Source: Candidatus Poribacteria bacterium
GTDB lineage: Bacteria > Poribacteria > WGA-4E > PCPOR2b
Assembly (NCBI GenBank): GCA_965198175.1
Contig: OZ240245.1
Coordinates: forward strand, 480,001-544,000
DNA length: 64,000 nt
Direction: 5' to 3'
The notes under the pieces were generated by a model. It was not told where the DNA came from. It saw nothing but the letters and a program-made list of their open reading frames with translations, and did no database searches. The translations under genes and the position numbers were made by a program. Positions 32,620-47,460 of the stretch are shown here, piece after piece. Numbering within the stretch: position 1 is the stretch's first letter; the number at the start of each line of letters is the position of its first letter.

Positions 32620-34818
32620 TTGAAACCCCAACTTATATATAGTATACTTATATATAATAGTAAAAAATTGCTTAAACTTTGTTTCTGTAACGGAAAGACG
32701 TTGGGCTGTATTCAAGATCGTCCAGTTCGAGACATATTAACAGAGAAATTAGCGTTGTGTTCCTTAGGGTGGGTGGAAGCTGTTGACACCGCTTTGGTGG
32801 ATGGTGCCGCTTTTCAAACTGCGCTCAAAGCGACTCAACTCTGGCTCGCAGGCAACTATAGCCGCGCTGACCGGCTTTTACAAGGCGAAGATGTAAGTTA
32901 TACCATTGTGACCGACGCCGACACGTTAGCATCGGTCACACCGGCGCTTGAACGAGCCGATGTGATTGCGATTGACACCGAGACCTATGCACCGGATGAT
33001 GTCCGATTCGATTTCGAGTGCGCTCATGATCGTTTTGCGCTGTTGACTCAGGAATTTGAGCGTGTTAGAGAATTCGCTAAACGAGCAAAGGGAGAGGCTG
33101 AAAAGCGTGCTATCCGCATGGTACGCGATACTATCAAACAGGAATGGAAAGCTGCAAAAGCGAAACTCAAAAGTACGGAAAGCGCCCTCAAACACGCAGG
33201 GCTCGACTCGCATCAGGCGAAAGTCCGACTGATTCAGTTGGCGATCGAAAATCGAGCGGTAGCCATGGTCGATCTAAATGCCTTTGATGATATGCTAGAC
33301 CTTGAGCCTCTGCGTAGGATATTGATGAACGATTCCATTAAGGTGCTTCACAACGCGAATTTTGACCTCCAGATGCTCTGGTCAATCGGTCTTGAAATCG
33401 GGGGGAACATCTTCGATACGATGATAGCGGCGAGGTTGCTCAATCCGAAGGAGAGTGCTGCTTTAGATGACGTTGTCAAGCAGTACTTTTCTGCAGGCTC
33501 AAGGCAGGCGCTGTCGAAGGCTGAGCAGTTGAGCGATTGGAGCGGCGATTTGACTGATTCGCAATGGCTCTATGCTGCGCGCGATGTGTCGGTACTTTTG
33601 CCACTACGAAAGCGGCTTAAATCCGAGTTGATTCGCGAAAATCTTACCCAGATTGTCAAGATTGAGTTTGACTGTGTGAGAGCAACTGCGGAGATGGAGT
33701 ATGTAGGAATGAAGGTTGATTCCGCTAAAGCAGACACCTACCGACGTCGCGTCGAAGCCCAAATGGCAAAACTTCGATCAGCTTTATACGGTTACCTGGG
33801 CGAAATCAGTCTGACCAGCCCAAAACAGCTCAAAATGGCTTTCGCCGGAATCGGTGTCGGTGTTGAGAGTACAGCTAGACGCGCGTTGTGGCAATTGACT
33901 GCGGCGCATCCGAGCATACCGCTGTTGTTGGCGTACAAGAAGCTATCCACCCTAATATCCGTCTGCCTTGAGCCTCTGCCCCGATGCGCTTCTACCAAAA
34001 CCGGTCGTGTCCATGCGAGTTATTGGCAGCTTGGCACCGCAACGGGGCGATTTTCCTGCTCGGGTCCAAATTTCCAGCAGGTGCCTCGGGACTTGGACGT
34101 ACGGGCTTGTTTTGTCGCTGAAGAGGACAATAAACTGGTCATCGCAGATTATTCACAGATTGAGTTGCGGGTTGCAGCAGAAGTCAGCGGAGATCGGAAA
34201 ATGACTCAAGCTTACCAGAACGGTGAAGATCTACACACGTTAACCGCTTCGCTGGTTCAAAAGATACCGCTTGAGGAGGTGACCCCCGAACAGCGTCAGG
34301 CAGCTAAAGCGATTAACTTCGGTTTGATTTTCGGGATGGGTGCGAAAGGGTTGAGGTACTCGGCGAAGCAGAATTACGGCGTGGAAATGACTTTGGGGGA
34401 AGCAGAGACTTTTCGGAATCGCTACTTCGAGTCATATTCGGGAATACGAGCGTGGCATCGGAGGTCCGGATGGGCTTTAAGGTACACGAATGAACAGAGA
34501 ACCCTCTGTGGTCGGCGGTTCGTCTGGGACGAAGCGGCTTCGTTTACAATCTTTATTAACAGGCAGGTACAAGGTACAGCAGCCGACATTATCAAGATTG
34601 CGCTGTCTAAGCTGATATTCGCTTTGAAGGACACCGGGGCGAAAATCATCGCTATGATTCACGATGAAATCATCATTGAAGTCTCTCAAGCCAACGCTGT
34701 TGAGGCAGCTCGGGTCCTGCAAGAGACGATGGAAGCTGCAGGTAGAGAAGTTCTAAAGAAGGTTCCAGTCGTGGCAGAAGCCCGCATCGCTGACAGTTGG
34801 GCGGAAAAGAAAAAATAG
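32620..34818 (+). CDS. Family A DNA polymerase with 3'-5' exonuclease and no 5'-3' nuclease
   Basis: ExoI DTET, ExoII HNANFD, ExoIII YAARD, motif A DYSQIELR, motif B RQAAKAINFGLIFG, motif C HDE; true start probably downstream of 32620. Confidence 0.9.
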   Translation: MKPQLIYSILIYNSKKLLKLCFCNGKTLGCIQDRPVRDILTEKLALCSLGWVEAVDTALVDGAAFQTALKATQLWLAGNYSRADRLLQGEDVSYTIVTDADTLASVTPALERADVIAIDTETYAPDDVRFDFECAHDRFALLTQEFERVREFAKRAKGEAEKRAIRMVRDTIKQEWKAAKAKLKSTESALKHAGLDSHQAKVRLIQLAIENRAVAMVDLNAFDDMLDLEPLRRILMNDSIKVLHNANFDLQMLWSIGLEIGGNIFDTMIAARLLNPKESAALDDVVKQYFSAGSRQALSKAEQLSDWSGDLTDSQWLYAARDVSVLLPLRKRLKSELIRENLTQIVKIEFDCVRATAEMEYVGMKVDSAKADTYRRRVEAQMAKLRSALYGYLGEISLTSPKQLKMAFAGIGVGVESTARRALWQLTAAHPSIPLLLAYKKLSTLISVCLEPLPRCASTKTGRVHASYWQLGTATGRFSCSGPNFQQVPRDLDVRACFVAEEDNKLVIADYSQIELRVAAEVSGDRKMTQAYQNGEDLHTLTASLVQKIPLEEVTPEQRQAAKAINFGLIFGMGAKGLRYSAKQNYGVEMTLGEAETFRNRYFESYSGIRAWHRRSGWALRYTNEQRTLCGRRFVWDEAASFTIFINRQVQGTAADIIKIALSKLIFALKDTGAKIIAMIHDEIIIEVSQANAVEAARVLQETMEAAGREVLKKVPVVAEARIADSWAEKKK

Positions 34819-35984: not shown

Positions 35985-38900
35985 TCACTCGTCCGCTGCT
36001 ACGGGTAGCCCGATGAACAGCCGGCTGTCAACATCCGCAAGTGGATCAACTTCGCCGGTTGCAGCGGCGCGGGCGAAAACGACGCCGGGGTGTTTTGCTC
36101 GCATCGCACGCACGAGAACGGTGAACCCTTTTGCTGCGCTGCCGTTGCGTAATTCCCATTCTATCCGTTCTCGTTCCAAATTGAGTCGAACAATTCCCTC
36201 CCGCAAACCGACGCAGAGCGGGTAAAGTTCTTCTGGCGTTAGACCGTCGCTATATCCGTGCCGAACGATGACATCTCTACCTCGAATGTCTGGAACCGAC
36301 CCACGCGCCCCGACGCAACAAGCGAGTCGATGAAGTCTACTATGTGCGTCTTGGCTTTTTGCTGCAAGGATGTGCGGTCCCAAGTTGTTGTCTCCGAAAT
36401 CGCTGCAGGCGGCAAGCCACTCGACAAGCTCTTCTGCATAAGCGTTCCACGCAGGTGCATCGTCGGGTTCTGCCGGAACGGATGGACTGCCGACGGTTTT
36501 ACTGATAAACGCGCTCATGGAGGCTCCCGATTCTTTGGCAATTTCGAGCCCGCGCTGCATCAGACGTTCGGCAACTTCAATCGTGCGATTTATTCCATCG
36601 CGTTTGAGAATGGCTTCCAGTGCCTGAGCTAGCGAAACTTGTCTAATTAAACCGTCAGGGGTGGCGATGTCGGTTCCGACAATCTCTGCGATTTCGCTGC
36701 GCCCTTCAGGGGTGAGACTCAGATGCGCCAGTCCCCACATTGCATCATGCCCCGGTGCGAGTGCTTTGTATAAATTTGGGTCGTGCTTCAGATGCCCCGC
36801 GATGGAAAGCCGCTCACCAGCTTCCCGTTGTCCGGCTTCAGTGATTGGGAGAAAGACCGCCGCTTGATCGCCATCGAAATTGGCGTTCATCAACTCACAC
36901 ACGAAAGGATGCACGCGGATAACACGGTCGGGGTGCCGCACCGGATGGAACGCAACAAGGTGAGTGAGTGTGTGCGCCGGCGGACGAAGCACAATCACCC
37001 ACGAACGCGCCATCAGTTCATCAAGGGCATGTGTTGCTTGTTGACTGCGTCGCCGTACTTCCCCGGCATCACCGAGCCTCTTTGTGATATGATGTCCAAA
37101 GAGTGCCCACGCCATCTCCTCCGGAATACCGACCTGATCAGCGCGTAACTCTGCGCCAGGCGCAATGACGGCGCGTCCGCTGAAGAGACTCCGTGCCTTA
37201 AAGTTCATGACGGTTGGGCTTAGGATTGCATTGACATATTCCGCAACGCGGATTTGGAGTTGCTTGATGGTTTGGCGGGTTAAACTCTCCGGTGTATTAC
37301 TGGCAAGCATCCGTTCGGTCCTGGTATTGACATCGGCAAGCGCCTGATATTCAGGCATGTCTTCACGGACGCCGACTTCATCAAGGATTTGATCGTGGAG
37401 CCACGGATGAGGAACGGGTTGAGCGAACTTGAGCGTATTTCCGTTCGGTCGTGCAAATCCAAAAGTCACCTTGTCGCCGCAAAGTTTAGTTCGGATTCCC
37501 ACCGCCGAGAGCCGATTCGAGAGGTCAGCGAATAACGGCGTCGGCGGACCCGCCTGTTCAACTTCTCCCCTTGCGACGCGCTCCACTAATGTATGCGCAT
37601 CCGTCCGTTTCATGGCACGGGTGTTAAAATGTTCCCGCAATGTTTCAAGCACTGAAGCATTTCGTAGTCTATCGTATTCAAGTTCACCAAGAGTCTGATG
37701 GTGCCTATGGTCTTCAAGATTGGTTGAGTCGGATGCTTTTATTTTATCTATGGCGATGTGAGCCAGGCGTCCCCAGTACACCCAACCGACTGTGCTGGGT
37801 CTTACCAGCTTCTTACCGTCCCGCCCAAGTGTGAGGTATTCCATTCCGTCTTCCGGAAGCCCTGCGTTCTTGAGGCGTTCGCGCAATTCATCTGCGCTCG
37901 GTGCATGGAATGGCGGCACGATGGCAGGTTTCCCTTCCGCTCGTGCGATGCGCCCCGTCACCGCTTCTCGTAATTGACCAAGGTTCATCCGCTCGTGCAA
38001 GCCCCCGAAACTGAAAACGAGTTCAACCGGTGTACCATCGGCGAGATGCGGCATCTCATCGTCAGGTAAGATGCGCGAAACAACCCCTTTCGTTCCATGA
38101 CGGTTGCCAATCTTATCGCCGGGTTCAACGGCATAAGGAAAATTCAGACGCGCAGCGCACGACTTGCTAATCACGATGCCGTCTTCGAAGGTATCGCCGC
38201 CCCATGAAATAAAAGCGGTCAATAGGTTGCGACCGCACCAAAAGTCAGATACATCCGGCTCGTAACCCGTTTGGACAAGCGCAGTCTCCGGAGCGGCAGC
38301 TAGCCTCGGCATCTCTTTGGTTAGGTGTGTTAGAGCTGTCTCCGGGGTTGAAGGCGCCATGCACTGACGCATCATGTTAGCCCCCATAAGTATCTGTGGA
38401 GGGTCATTGTGTTCAAGAAAAGGAATCATCGACGATGCTAAACCGAGGCTTGCTTCGGGGTTTTCATCAACCACGACCAATTTTCCATCGCGAATCTCGG
38501 CACCCCTAGCAATCGTAAGGATTCGACCTACGCTTGGTCCCTCCGGCGTTTCAAAAGGGCAAGTTCGCCCGAAGTGGGAAGAGGTGAATACCTTCTCGCG
38601 GTTCAGAACCAATAACCGTCGGAGATGCGTATACTTGTCAAGCCAATTGGTTTCTTGAAGTATCTGCGCGTAAAATGTGTCACGAAAGAATTCCTCTATC
38701 CATTTATCAAGTTGGAGCCATGACCGTACAGGGGCTGCTTCCCACGACAAGTCTAGGGGGGCACCCTTCAAACGCTCTTTGAAATAACTATGCAGTTGTT
38801 CTCCAACACATCTAATTTTCGCCTTTTTAAGTTTATAGGTTGAAGCCGTTGGAACAACGACATAGTTTTCTCCGCCGATTTTGAACATCCCTTCCTCGTC

Positions 38901-39104
38901 CGGCTGTGGGATGTCGGTGTACTCGACTTCAACGTTGCCATCGGTTGACGTGAGGGAGATTTTGATACAACCGGTGTAGATGCCGGTGGGTTCAAAGTGA
39001 TAGCCAGCTACCGGCAATTGCTCTGCGAGCAAATCTGGCAGCCGATTGTTCGTCAGTTGGTCAAAAGATTTTTTGTGCCAAAATGCAGTGATGTTGTTTG
39101 ACAT
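35985..39104 (-). CDS. Miniature single-chain RNA polymerase beta-beta' fusion protein
   Basis: RpoB motifs GRTCPFETPEG, IPFLEHND, MGANMMRQ, FEDGIVIS, GDKIGNRHGTKG and RMNLGQ, then RpoC motifs SGRAVI, NANFDGDQ and DGLTPEE; GAGGAGG SD. Confidence 0.9.
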   Translation of the reverse strand: MSNNITAFWHKKSFDQLTNNRLPDLLAEQLPVAGYHFEPTGIYTGCIKISLTSTDGNVEVEYTDIPQPDEEGMFKIGGENYVVVPTASTYKLKKAKIRCVGEQLHSYFKERLKGAPLDLSWEAAPVRSWLQLDKWIEEFFRDTFYAQILQETNWLDKYTHLRRLLVLNREKVFTSSHFGRTCPFETPEGPSVGRILTIARGAEIRDGKLVVVDENPEASLGLASSMIPFLEHNDPPQILMGANMMRQCMAPSTPETALTHLTKEMPRLAAAPETALVQTGYEPDVSDFWCGRNLLTAFISWGGDTFEDGIVISKSCAARLNFPYAVEPGDKIGNRHGTKGVVSRILPDDEMPHLADGTPVELVFSFGGLHERMNLGQLREAVTGRIARAEGKPAIVPPFHAPSADELRERLKNAGLPEDGMEYLTLGRDGKKLVRPSTVGWVYWGRLAHIAIDKIKASDSTNLEDHRHHQTLGELEYDRLRNASVLETLREHFNTRAMKRTDAHTLVERVARGEVEQAGPPTPLFADLSNRLSAVGIRTKLCGDKVTFGFARPNGNTLKFAQPVPHPWLHDQILDEVGVREDMPEYQALADVNTRTERMLASNTPESLTRQTIKQLQIRVAEYVNAILSPTVMNFKARSLFSGRAVIAPGAELRADQVGIPEEMAWALFGHHITKRLGDAGEVRRRSQQATHALDELMARSWVIVLRPPAHTLTHLVAFHPVRHPDRVIRVHPFVCELMNANFDGDQAAVFLPITEAGQREAGERLSIAGHLKHDPNLYKALAPGHDAMWGLAHLSLTPEGRSEIAEIVGTDIATPDGLIRQVSLAQALEAILKRDGINRTIEVAERLMQRGLEIAKESGASMSAFISKTVGSPSVPAEPDDAPAWNAYAEELVEWLAACSDFGDNNLGPHILAAKSQDAHSRLHRLACCVGARGSVPDIRGRDVIVRHGYSDGLTPEELYPLCVGLREGIVRLNLERERIEWELRNGSAAKGFTVLVRAMRAKHPGVVFARAAATGEVDPLADVDSRLFIGLPVAADE

Positions 39105-39204: not shown

Positions 39205-39873
39205 TTAACTATCTTCCTCGTATTCGCCTGTAATCTCCTTCCATTCTTTAGCGAGACGCCTTATCGAATAGTGTAAACGCGACTTCACAGTGCCTTCCGG
39301 GATGCCAATCTCAGCGGCGACCTCACGAAGGTTCATCTCTTTCTGATATACAAGGTGAAGCACCTCTCGTTTATCTTCGGGCAGTTCTTCAACCAGCCGC
39401 CAAAGCAAATTAGACTGCTCAGCTTGTTCCAGCATCACATCGGGGCCACGTAACGATGTGTCAATCATCCAATCTGGGTCGGGCACATAGTCGTCCGCAT
39501 CATCAAAATCATCCGGCGGTATTTCGAGGGGATGTTGCTTCCGCCGACGCAGGGTGCGCAGGTAATTAAGGGCGAGATTTGTAGCGATGCGGAAGAACCA
39601 TGCTTTGAAATTACCTCGACCCTCCCACCGCTCGGCGGAAGTCCAAATTCGCAAAAATGCCTCCTGAACCAAATCCTCGGCTGCACTTTCGTCCTGCACG
39701 ATGCGTATGATGTGTCTGCGGACGGACTCGCTATATCGTGCCCAAAGCGTTTCAAATGCCGCCGCATCGTGTTCACGGATCTTATCAATGAGAAATTGAT
39801 CGGATTGTATTATAAATGTCCCTCCGCTCACGGAAAAACCAGCTTTCGTTCGGCGATTTTTGGGTTCGCGCAC
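39205..39873 (-). CDS. ECF-subfamily RNA polymerase sigma factor
   Basis: AEDLVQEAFLRIW and WFFRIATNLALNYLR (region 2); EVAAEIGIPEGTVKSRLH (region 4); start uncertain. Confidence 0.93.
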   Translation of the reverse strand: MREPKNRRTKAGFSVSGGTFIIQSDQFLIDKIREHDAAAFETLWARYSESVRRHIIRIVQDESAAEDLVQEAFLRIWTSAERWEGRGNFKAWFFRIATNLALNYLRTLRRRKQHPLEIPPDDFDDADDYVPDPDWMIDTSLRGPDVMLEQAEQSNLLWRLVEELPEDKREVLHLVYQKEMNLREVAAEIGIPEGTVKSRLHYSIRRLAKEWKEITGEYEEDS

Positions 39874-39943: not shown

Positions 39944-39970
39944 ATGACACCGCAAGGGATTAATAAGTTC
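39944..39970 (-). promoter_or_regulatory. sigmaE-type ECF promoter, likely autoregulatory
   Basis: Minus strand reads GAACTT-attaatcccttgcggt(16)-GTCAT, about 70 nt upstream of the ECF gene. Confidence 0.65.
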
Positions 39971-40153
39971 ACAAGTTGAACGAAAAATTCAGCAGAACGT
40001 TGGTTGAGCGGGAGAACAAGGCGAGATAAAAGACGAAAGCGTTACTTATGTCGGTCGGTGAGAAAAACTGTTTGACACAATATAGGTTATTGTGCAATAA
40101 TGGTTGATGCCTGCCGAATCTATTCTAACTGAAAGCTGAAAGAAAATCTTCAG

Positions 40154-43698: not shown

Positions 43699-43908
43699 GA
43701 TGCCGTGAACATTTGTTCATCTGCAAAAGGGGATATTGCTCTGTCAACCGTATCTTGAAGTAGATAATACTTTAGGTTGGAAAGCCGATGAGAGATTACA
43801 AAGAAGAGCAACGGATTTTTCTGATGAGACCGTGAAACGCACCATGACGTATTCACGTTTTATGAAGTATGATTGTCGAATTATCTGTCAATTGAAGGAG
43901 GAAACCCG

Positions 43909-46900
43909 TTGCATCTCAATCAGATTAAAATAAGTAGTTTCAAGAGTTTTGCCGAGGAGACGGAATTAATACTTGAGCCGGGTGTCACTGTCGTAGTGGG
44001 GCCAAACGGCTGTGGTAAAAGCAACGTATCCGACGCCATCCGCTGGGTGCTTGGTGAGCAGAGTGCGCGTGCGCTTCGCTGCGCCAATATGCAGGACATC
44101 ATTTTCAACGGCGGCGCGAATTTCAAGCCAGCGCCAAAGACGCATGTTTCTCTGCGTTTCACCAACGTCGATGGAAAACTCGCACTCGAATCTCCGGAGA
44201 TTGAGGTTCGTCGTCAATTGGCACGAAGTGGCGAGAGTGATTATTTTATCAATCAGAGTTCCTGCCTGCTGCGAGATATCACGGAACTCTTTATGGATAC
44301 CGGCGTCGGTGTTGATGCTTACTCCATAATGGAACAGGCTAAGATTGATCTCATCCTCAATAACCGTCCAGAAGAACGTCGCTTTCTGTTTGATGAAGTT
44401 GCGGGTATCACCAAATATAAGCGCCGCAAAAAAGCCGCGATCAAAAAACTGGAAGACACAGAACAAAATCTCGTGCGAATCAATGATATCATTCACGAAT
44501 TGCAGCGTGAAACCGAATCGCTCAAACGGCAAGCGCAACAAGCTGTGAGTTATCAACAACTGCACGACCAGTTGAAACAGTTAGAATTGGAACTGAATTG
44601 TAGGGAGCACGGACGCTTTGTCAAGGAATTGACCGAAACGCAACTGAGCTTGGATGAAATCTTGAATCTGACGGCGGGAGCAAATGCGACAATCCAAATG
44701 ACCGAGGGACAAATTGAAGACGCAACGGTGAAACGGTCTGAATTAGAAGTTACTATTCGCGATGCACAAGAGGTTGTGCGTCAATTCATGAGTGAGATTG
44801 AGCAGACGGAGCGGCAGATTGCGCTTTACAAGGAGCGACAGTTAAATATACAACAGCAGCGCCAGCGTGCGATTCAAGCGATTGAATCTTTGGAAAAACA
44901 GCACGCTGAACTCGAAACCCAAAAGGGTGAACGCGAGCGGGAACGCACGCAGATTGATGTTACCCTTAAGCTGGAAGAAAGCCGCCTGACAGCACGACGC
45001 CGGGTTCTAGGAGAACTCACTACACGAGTAGATGATGCTGAACAGACAGTGAACACAACAAAAGAGCAGTTGCTTGAAACGAGCACCCAGGTTTCCCAAG
45101 CGGAGGCACAGTTCACTTCACTCGAAGGCAAACTGGCATATTCCACGGACAATTTGAATCGGGTCGTTGAGAACTCAAGGACGTTGCACACTGAACTGGA
45201 TGCCGCAAAGGAAGCACATTCAAAAGCACAGAGACGTGAGCAGCAGTTAGCAGCGGACCAAATTCGCCTCGACACTGAAAAACAAAACGCGGAAGACGAA
45301 CTGCAACATCATCAGGATGAACTTCGGAAGCTGGAATTTGAGATGCGTGGGTTTCAGGATTCGCTTGGCATGAGCGTTTCGCGCCTCAAATCATTGCAGG
45401 AATTACAAGCCGCTCACGAAGGTTATTATACGGGCGTCCGAGCTATTCTAAAAGCCAGAGAGGTACATCCCGATCGGTTCGGTGGAGTTTGCGGAGTCAT
45501 CGCGGAATTGATTCGTACAGCCCCAGACTACGAATTAGCCATGGAAGTAGCGTTGGGCAGCGCCATCCAAAACGTCGTTACAGAAACTGCCGAGGATGCC
45601 CAAGCGGGAATTGCATTTCTCAAGGAGACACGGGCAGGTCGAGTGACATTCCTGCCGTTGGACATTTTGCGTACCCGTTCCTTCCGGGACAACAACCTGC
45701 TCCATCAAGCCGGCGTAATCGGTCTAGCATCCGAACTGCTGGATTATGACCCCAAATATGCGGTCGCGGTTCAGCAACTGTTGGGGAATACAGTCGTCAT
45801 TGAAAATCTCGACAGGGCAATACAATTGACGAGGAGTTTCCGTCCAAACGCCCGCCTCGTCACGTTAGAAGGAGAATTGATCAATACATCTGGCGCAGTC
45901 ACAGGTGGCTCCAGCAATCATCAAACTAGTGGTCTGCTCAGTCGCCCTAGAGAGTTGGAAGATTTACAGGAGCGAATCAATCAACTGACGGGAGTTGTCA
46001 ACGAAAAAGACGCTAAACGCAAAGGCCATGTCAAGATGTTAGCGCAACTCCAGCAGACTCGACAAACACTCATCACGAAACAGCATGATAACCATATCGA
46101 TCGTACAAGCCTGACAAAGGATTTGGAACAACTCCATGACAAAATTACGCAACTCAAACACCAACTGACCGATGCTGAAACGGAAGGTGCGAATCTTCAT
46201 CAAGAAACTGAGAAAGTCAAAGCAGATCGGGAGACCCTTCAAATCCAACTGGCGGAAGCCCAGAAAACACAACAAACACTGCGACGGCGGATTGAACGGC
46301 TATCGGAGCAGATTCAAGTCGAGTGTAAAAAGCGAGATGAAGTGTCGGAATCGTGTCAGGAACTTGAAATCAGTTTAGCGGGCAAGCGTGAGAGATTACA
46401 GGGTCTCGGCAGTGAACTCACAACGCTTCAGAAAAATCAGGTGCAAATCCGCGAGAGTATCGGCGAGCATCAAGAAATTATCGACTCGGACAATCAGACG
46501 CAACAAAATCTCTCCCAACAGATTGACGAAGCTCAACGCCAATTTCTCCGATCGGAGGGACGGAAATTTGAAGCCGAAGAGTGTGTGAGCCAACTAGAGT
46601 CAGAACGTGACGGCTTAATCGAACAAATCTCTGAGGCACAGAAGCTGATGCGCAGAACGAGGAGGGAATTTGATAAACATAACCGCATGCGGCATCACTT
46701 GGAGGTAACAACTACGCAATTGGAGATGCAACTGAAGGCAATCTCCACGCGCATTCAAGAAAAGTATCAGGTGTCCATCGATCAGATTGAAATCGAAGAA
46801 AATCAAGCCAGCGATCTCGAGTTGATGGACGGAATCGAGACGCTAAAAGTTCAGATTGAGAACATGGGTTCCGTCAACCTCGTGGCGATTGAAGAGTATC

Positions 46901-47460
46901 AAGAGCACAAAAAACGCGAGGACTTTCTTGCGGAGCAGCGGGAAGATTTGCAGAAATCGCTCGAGTCGACCTATCAAGCGATTCAAAAGATTAACCAAAC
47001 CTCACGGGACGCCTTTCTCCAAACCTTCGAACAGATTCGCTCAAACTTCCAGGCTGTGTTCGAGGAACTCTTCAACGGCGGGGAGACGGAATTGCGCTTA
47101 ACGGACGAGTCCGATGTGTTGGAGGCTGGGATTGATATTATTGCCTGTCCACCGGGGAAACGTCCCCAAAGTATCACGCAACTGTCCGGCGGTGAACGGT
47201 CACTCGTTGCTATCGCCCTGCTGTTCGCCATCTTTAAAATCAAGCCAAGTCCCTTCTGTGTTCTTGATGAAGTTGATGCCGCGCTAGATGAAGCGAACGT
47301 ACTCCGCTTTACCAACCTCATTCGGAAATACGCTGAACAGACACAACTCATCATTATCACCCACAACAAACGAACGATGGAGATTGCCGATACGATGTAT
47401 GGCGTGACGATGGAGCAGGCGGGTGTGTCAAAAATTGTTTCGGCGAAGTTTAGCGGATAG
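43909..47460 (+). CDS. smc: Chromosome segregation protein SMC
   Basis: [13 protein letters not shown], coiled coils, hinge [31 protein letters not shown] before TTG 43909. Confidence 0.97.

Follow-up and report, generated by a model that had tools for sequence, protein, structure and literature searches.

In PMC2919709, the DxDxD signature of the two-barrel RNA polymerases (RNAPs) is termed invariant. The first of its aspartates has a central place in catalysis: as described in PMC13198411, β′ D460 of the multisubunit enzyme coordinates both Mg A and Mg B, and β R678, K1073 and R1106 contact the nucleoside triphosphate (NTP). A YonO mutant in which all three aspartates were replaced by asparagine was inactive, yet formed stable elongation complexes (PMC5467207). 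Here we describe a single-chain mini RNA polymerase of 1039 residues, encoded in a 64,000-nucleotide stretch of a Candidatus Poribacteria genome (contig OZ240245.1, positions 480,001 to 544,000), in which this first aspartate is an asparagine, Asn742. The whole stretch is called the window, and all positions are counted from its first letter. The Asn742 protein is a new natural variant of the two-barrel polymerase, and Asn742 is a clade-level trait.

The polymerase gene and its metal-binding loop

The gene and the loop that carries the replaced aspartate are placed as follows.

35985 to 39104, minus strand: gene for the single-chain β–β′ mini RNA polymerase (P0001), 1039 residues, identified from the open reading frame (ORF), Pfam, the predicted model and Foldseek.
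36867 to 36887, minus strand: metal-binding loop NANFDGD, residues 740–746, the counterpart of NADFDGD, identified from the sequence and its alignment with the host β′.
36879 to 36881, minus strand: codon AAT, Asn742, replacing the first Asp of the triad, established from the sequence, the species comparison and contigs.

The loop peptide of P0001 is N740-A-N742-F-D744-G-D746, and thus departs from the DxDxD metal triad of the β′-type barrel, whereas the canonical β′ of the same host, which served as a control, has NADFDGD at the aligned place. We take the column of Asn742, matched by motif, to be the equivalent of E. coli β′ D460. The sequence-only reading of this DNA had already pointed to NANFDGD, and positions 36887 to 36867 of the minus strand do read AAC GCC AAT TTC GAT GGC GAT, in frame. 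The codon itself is confirmed by contigs from two studies, both of which give AAT, so that a sequencing error, which had been raised as a concern, is not the explanation. A contig of run X1, which may be the assembly's own source, spans 36783–37123 with 0 other letters. A contig of run X3, from the other study, spans 36783–37140 with 2 other letters; the X3 differences among those listed for 36783–37140 lie at 36972 and 37007, and since the two other letters match these, X3 reads AAT.

The same codon is found throughout the genus. It is AAT in all four species representatives (L001, L006, L007 and L008), between which synonymous sites near codon 742 vary (TTC/TTT and GAT/GAC), and it is GAC (11) or GAT (1) in all 12 loci from other genera. 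The 1039-residue gene is intact in each of the four species representatives (G000–G003), at 83–88% identity.

The gene is the sole long ORF that covers the region, with 1039 codons and no stop. Its product scores above the Pfam cut-offs for Rpb2 domain 3 (Rpb2_3, 34.6 bits against 21), Rpb2 domain 6 (Rpb2_6, 148.2 bits against 23.4, E-value 4.5e-43) and Rpb1 domain 2 (Rpb1_2, 55.4 bits against 25.3). It stays far below the equivalog cut-offs for rpoB (NCBIfam TIGR02013, 177.9 against 801.15) and rpoC (NCBIfam TIGR02386, 76.5 against 963.5), and it aligns piecewise to the rpoB and rpoC of its own genome. From this combination the protein is, as judged from its sequence, a pruned β–β′ fusion and not a canonical subunit. 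Normal copies of rpoB (1305 residues) and rpoC (1422 residues) are present in the same genome, at a distance of approximately 4 Mb. The AlphaFold (AF2) model of P0001, built from 112 relatives, has a predicted local distance difference test score (pLDDT) of 93.6 and a predicted template modelling score of 0.91. The best Foldseek matches of this model are bacterial RNAP β chains (E-values down to 2.3e-23, template modelling scores of 0.3–0.58), and both lysines of the β-type barrel motif GDK...HGxKG are present (K331 and K339).

Triad states in the family and changes in the substrate pocket

The protein belongs to a large family. Among 8000 scored candidates, 1741 relatives of P0001 were found at an E-value of at most 0.001, and 502 representatives have an E-value of at most 1e-30 to it; among the matches listed, 119 relatives share 50–88% identity with P0001. 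Their source names, where present, are 'hypothetical protein' from Poribacteria, Chloroflexi, Armatimonadetes and others. A profile scan of genome contigs retained 80 loci, of which just four (L032–L035) match nearly the whole query; the other 76 are partial matches with 24–47% identity and are presumed to be canonical rpoB or rpoC.

At position 742, the 187 aligned full-length members have D in 175 cases, N in 10 and G in 2. Together with the cluster members and the relatives of P0190, they make up a set of 288 full-length members, for which the triad states below were counted from alignments. This sample is non-random and enriched in near relatives of the two queries, and its shares are therefore not frequencies.

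D-D-D: 264 of 288 members.
N-D-D: 18 of 288 members.
G-G-L: 2 of 288 members.
V-V-L: 1 of 288 members.
G-S-Q: 1 of 288 members.
D-D-N: 1 of 288 members.
D-N-D: 1 of 288 members.

Since the great majority of the full-length members retain D-D-D, the decoy idea put forward from the window alone is refuted in its family-wide form: the family overall is no decoy. A second, non-catalytic ANFDGD (for example GIHANFDGDKLTF) occurs near residue 540, in the β/β′ linker, of sister-clade proteins (P0009, P0010, P0013, P0016–P0018, P0020, P0021 and P0037) and misleads simple motif searches; the window protein has RTKLCGDKVTF there.

Among the 46 closest proteins, the tree calls for two origins of Asn at position 742. 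The first is a clade of eight rows that includes the window protein (Shimodaira–Hasegawa-like approximate likelihood ratio test (SH-aLRT) value of 100), and the second is the pair P0029 and P0034, which is nested within the Asp clade; the 12 other listed motif-covering members of P0029's 90% cluster all have Asp. The 90% clusters to which P0001 and P0002 belong list 17 motif-covering members, 16 of which have Asn. A tree of 62 sequences places the 17 sequences of the Asn clade on one branch (SH-aLRT 100), with Asp in all five outgroups. These data show that Asn took the place of the first triad Asp on the stem of one genus and was passed on from there. Compensation by an aspartate at position 740 was considered and rejected: Asp is found there in only 3 of the 17 clade sequences, and in 33 of the 187 family members regardless of the residue at 742.

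The replaced aspartate is accompanied by changes around the substrate, for which the relevant sites in the window are as follows.

38394 to 38396, minus strand: codon CAG, Gln237, replacing the conserved Arg of the NTP γ-phosphate pocket, from alignment to DDANRALMG of the host rpoB.
38361 to 38369, minus strand: R246-Q247-C248 of the GANMMRQW motif, with Arg246 kept and Trp248 replaced by Cys in the window, from alignment and codons.
38088 to 38114, minus strand: GDK...HGTKG, with Lys331 and Lys339 both kept in the window, from alignment.
37989 to 37991, minus strand: Arg372 of RMN, kept in the window, from alignment.

By motif matching, we take position 237 to correspond to E. coli β R678 and position 246 to β R687, and K331, K339 and R372 to correspond to β K1065, K1073 and R1106, respectively. 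All 146 distant family members have R, H or K in column 237, and all 40 sister-clade sequences have R. The list of retained active-centre residues drawn up from the sequence alone holds for F306-E307-D308, K331, K339, R372, H449 and R644, and it overlooked the replacement of Arg237 by Gln. The His of LAHI was also misassigned there as the active-centre histidine, since the histidine of the canonical KIHARS aligns with Lys457 instead.

Deviations were counted at 98 columns with at least 95% conservation among the 146 distant members. Their mean is 3.25 in the Asn clade (range 2–5, 8 sequences) as against 0.43 in the sister clade (range 0–3, 28 sequences). In the 62-sequence tree, the Asn clade has 17 rows and a subtree length of 1.054, and the sister clade has 40 rows and a subtree length of 2.477. 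Parsimony assigns 16 events at the 98 columns to the Asn clade and 15 to the sister clade, or 15 and 14 when column 742 is left out; with an Asn-clade exposure share of 30%, the latter numbers give a one-sided binomial p of 0.011. The excess lies in four basic residues, which align with substrate- and RNA-pocket residues of canonical RNAP.

Position 237, Arg of DDANRALMG: Gln in 6 of 17, the window included; 3 changes in the Asn clade, 0 in the sister clade.
Position 246, Arg of NMQRQ: Cys in 12 of 17; 5 changes in the Asn clade, 0 in the sister clade, which has R in 40 of 40.
Position 331, Lys of GDK: Met in 3 of 17; 2 changes in the Asn clade, 0 in the sister clade.
Position 372, Arg of RMN: Leu in 2 of 17; 2 changes in the Asn clade, 0 in the sister clade.

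At least one of these residues has been lost in 16 of the 17 Asn-clade sequences, P0007 being the only one without a loss. The states at positions 237-246-331-372 in the four species loci are Q-R-K-R (the window), R-C-K-R, Q-C-K-L and R-C-K-L, and codon 372 is CTA (Leu) in two of the four (L007 and L008). The sister clade also uses CpG-containing Arg codons at positions 237 and 246, so the contrast between the clades cannot be put down to mutation bias alone. The comparison shows relaxed selection at the four pocket residues in the Asn clade after the change at position 742. Taken together, the four positions have 12 parsimony changes in the Asn clade and none in the 40 sister sequences, a contrast that is weakened by the choice of the four basic positions after the data were seen and by the repeated changes at 246 (5) and 237 (3), which may partly reflect strain recombination or tree error. 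If each position is counted as a single event, the contrast is 4 against 0 (one-sided p of approximately 0.008, calculated by hand from the exposure share).

Selection on the operon and the sigma partner

The polymerase gene is preceded by a gene for a putative sigma factor and by a promoter-like motif.

39205 to 39873, minus strand: ECF (extracytoplasmic function)-like sigma-70 family gene, 222 residues, directly upstream of the polymerase gene, from Pfam Sigma70_r2 and r4 and ECF matches.
39946 to 39971, minus strand: promoter-like motif TGAAC-N13-GCGGTGTC upstream of the sigma gene, from inspection by eye.

The sigma gene lies upstream in 22 of the 23 loci that contain the 5′ end of the polymerase gene (tblastn), with L027 giving no hit. 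The motif TGAAC-N13-GCGGTGTC is present in 21 of 22 upstream stretches, including those of all four Asn-clade loci, and L025 has a one-letter variant of it. In the window's genus, approximately 130 extra bases separate the promoter-like motif from the conserved QSD start region of the sigma protein. In five genomes searched, the TGAAC/GCGGTGTC site with 13-base spacing occurs once per genome, at the operon. A regulon search with TGAAC-N13-17-GCGGTGTC in five genomes yielded, besides the operon site, matches only at the level of the reversed-pattern control.

The ratio of nonsynonymous to synonymous substitution rates (dN/dS, Nei–Gojobori method) of the polymerase gene is 0.18–0.27 in the Asn clade (6 pairs, dS 0.21–0.48) and 0.13–0.19 in the Asp sister clade (21 pairs, median 0.15). 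For the sigma gene, the median is 0.19 in the Asn clade as against 0.16 in the sister clade. The gene is not decaying, because neutrality since the stem of the genus would not leave 1039 codons open with a dN/dS of approximately 0.2. These results show that the polymerase, its sigma partner and the promoter-like site are under purifying selection. By region, the dN/dS of the motif stretches is 0.135 in the Asn clade and 0.076 in the sister clade, a 1.8-fold difference; the rise in the Asn clade is only 1.14-fold in residues 471–635, which include the hairpin aligned with the β′ clamp helices, and there is none in the β′ barrel (0.9-fold).

Gene fragments occur in the clusters of P0001 and P0002 (P0272, P0273, P0275, P0277, P0278, P0281, P0284 and P0286). 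These eight fragments have 217–796 residues and come from contigs of 0.07–4.5 Mb, with P0277 accompanying P0278 and P0286 accompanying P0273 as examples; they may be true frameshifts in some Asn-clade strains or indel errors of long-read assembly. Genome G020, of genus g5, has a broken polymerase copy in two pieces (L021 and L028), one of which contains 3 TGA codons.

A complex predicted for polymerase residues 460–1039 and the sigma protein gives weak support for their binding, with a score of 0.56, where the highest-scoring of 3 controls had 0.00; the runs share at least 38% of their contacts and the partner pLDDT is at least 63. For calibration, 116 of 157 solved complexes and 2 of 215 mismatches came up to the mark; with scores of 0.60 or below, just 18 of the 157 solved complexes and both of the mismatches did so. 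A pass may reflect likeness to solved sigma–RNAP holoenzymes.

Contigs of runs X7 and X10, from RNA libraries labelled as sponge metagenome, match portions of both the polymerase gene and the sigma gene, with 0–8 other letters. Examples at 37118–37320, 37026–37231 and 39503–39653 have 0 other letters each, and none of them covers codon 742. Such contigs hint at expression of the operon and are no proof of transcription.

The window contains several further genes. A 732-residue family A DNA polymerase (32620–34818, plus strand) with a 3′–5′ exonuclease domain and an N-terminal region of approximately 190 residues without assignment is convergent with the mini polymerase, and a gene for a short-chain dehydrogenase separates the two. 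An IS1595-family transposase gene (26552–27436, plus strand) and a KilA-N domain gene (27393–28202, minus strand) overlap at the end of the latter, and the stretch 26552–28202 represents mobile-element debris approximately 8 kb from the polymerase. The gene at 43873–47460 (plus strand) encodes an ordinary SMC protein of 1195 residues.

Interpretation and comparison with known polymerases

We lean towards a severely attenuated or silent polymerase that is retained for binding sigma or DNA. With the replacement of a residue that in canonical RNAP ligates both catalytic Mg ions, nucleotide addition should slow or stop, as the published structures and mutants suggest. Sosunov and colleagues are said to have found in 2005 that single triad substitutions in E. 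coli RNAP lower activity by orders of magnitude. After the Asn change, the constraint on the substrate pocket loosened, and the four basic residues were lost in lineage-specific combinations. From the ligation of both metals by the D460-type Asp and the behaviour of the triple-Asn YonO, the window protein is probably very slow or inactive in nucleotide addition and still able to bind nucleic acid; it probably still binds its sigma factor as well, as the weak complex prediction would suggest. Given the purifying selection on the polymerase, the sigma gene and the promoter-like site, the selected function is most likely independent of a normal catalytic rate. It could, speculatively, be that of a sigma sink or buffer, or of a promoter-bound brake on the polymerase's own operon. 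The 'dead decoy' that had been proposed from the sequence is thus plausible at the level of the genus, where alone the pocket erodes and for which triad-less relatives offer a parallel, and it goes beyond what the invariance of the other active-site residues and the purifying selection would allow one to claim.

Several observations weigh against a silent polymerase and speak for a slow but working Asn-Asp-Asp enzyme, in which Mg would be ligated through the carbonyl group or another metal would be used, and in which the basic changes would retune substrate binding. We regard this as possible but unlikely. Asn is isosteric with Asp and can ligate Mg via its carbonyl oxygen, it was the outcome at both changes of position 742 in this group, and one member of the Asn clade, P0283, has Asp again at this position, a reversal. 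All 17 clade sequences keep D744, D746, E307, D308, K339 and R644, and as the residues invariant here are replaced in P0190, P0302, P0303 and P0150, the remaining metal site may still be needed. The motif stretches, although their dN/dS has risen, are still under stronger constraint than any other part of the Asn-clade protein, and the sigma gene and promoter-like motif have been retained. A working enzyme is harder to reconcile with the ligation of both metals by the first Asp (PMC13198411) and with the differences between lineages in Q237, C246, M331 and L372, which resemble relaxation rather than one adaptive solution.

A young pseudogene, or a gene on its way to loss with Asn as the first hit, would fit an accessory gene that was not found in 4 of the 16 genus-g5 genomes and whose G020 copy is broken, and it would fit the several fragments in the two 90% Asn-clade clusters. 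We consider it very improbable, given the low dN/dS at appreciable dS across the four species that inherited the Asn, the ORFs intact in all four, a sigma gene that is equally constrained, and fragments that may be long-read indel errors. A sequencing or assembly error, or the strain-specific lesion suggested at the outset, can be set aside with near certainty, as the contigs of two studies agree, all four species have AAT and 16 of the 17 clade sequences have Asn across many assemblies.

The silent or severely attenuated polymerase would have counterparts elsewhere in the same family, in full-length proteins that have lost catalytic residues. P0190 and P0302 (G-G-L) and P0303 (V-V-L) are full length and also lack K339 and R372. 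P0190 and P0303 share 69% identity, and P0304 and P0305, the closest relatives whose site is intact, are approximately 61% identical to this group; the gene has been kept open over a long divergence in the P0190 clade. When P0190 was compared with the metagenome contigs, the best locus was only 38% identical. P0150 (G-S-Q), P0160 (D-D-N) and P0370 (D-N-D) are also full length and lack K339. The triad is mostly or wholly gone from P0190, P0302, P0303 and P0150, and all six proteins are without K339, whereas the window clade retains K339, D744 and D746. The non-canonical triads fall in six sequence groups, two of which were placed on the tree, and may correspond to six separate origins. We suggest, tentatively, that the family repeatedly yields pseudo-polymerases that are kept by selection, of which the window's genus would represent an early stage and the clade of P0190 and P0303 a late one.

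If so, the scaffold would serve a second purpose other than catalysis, for example as a 'dead RNAP' regulator that binds promoters under the guidance of sigma or buffers sigma. Selective retention of silent members would mean a family function beyond RNA synthesis, which would change the reading of the whole family. A triad treated as invariant in two-barrel polymerases (PMC2919709) here has a natural, genus-wide and selected Asn variant. The Asn clade and its sister clade with a normal triad form a natural pair for probing the contribution of the first aspartate, and the same pair bears on whether the sigma-coupled mini polymerase acts through transcription.

With canonical RNAP β and β′, the window protein shares two double-psi barrel cores and the FED, GDK, HGxKG, RMN, SGR and NADFDGD-like motifs; it differs in being one chain of 1039 residues, as against approximately 2700, and in having Asn for the first Asp and Gln at the R678 equivalent. 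With the other mini RNA polymerases it shares the β–β′ fusion of approximately 1000 residues, the upstream sigma gene and the promoter-like motif, whereas most of that family is D-D-D and the window's genus is N-D-D with eroding pocket residues. Within the searchable papers, none was found that deals with a fused mini RNAP coupled to a sigma factor, and a search of the literature for an Asn substitution in NADFDGD returned only unrelated ones; the sigma-coupled mini RNA polymerase family appears to be undescribed in the searchable literature.

Among the described single-chain relatives, K2ORF6p (Orf6) of the yeast killer plasmid pGKL2 is a fusion in the order Rpb2::Rpb1 with 982 residues, in which approximately half of the canonical sequence is deleted (PMC2919709). 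It belongs to a eukaryotic cytoplasmic linear plasmid and is without sigma. To our knowledge, YonO is likewise without a sigma partner. YonO, from the SPbeta prophage of B. subtilis, resembles the window protein in being a single-chain two-barrel RNA polymerase, and has few residues in common with multisubunit RNAPs (PMC5467207). Its triple mutant is a laboratory model of the possible silent natural variant, with three aspartates changed by engineering where the window protein has one changed naturally.

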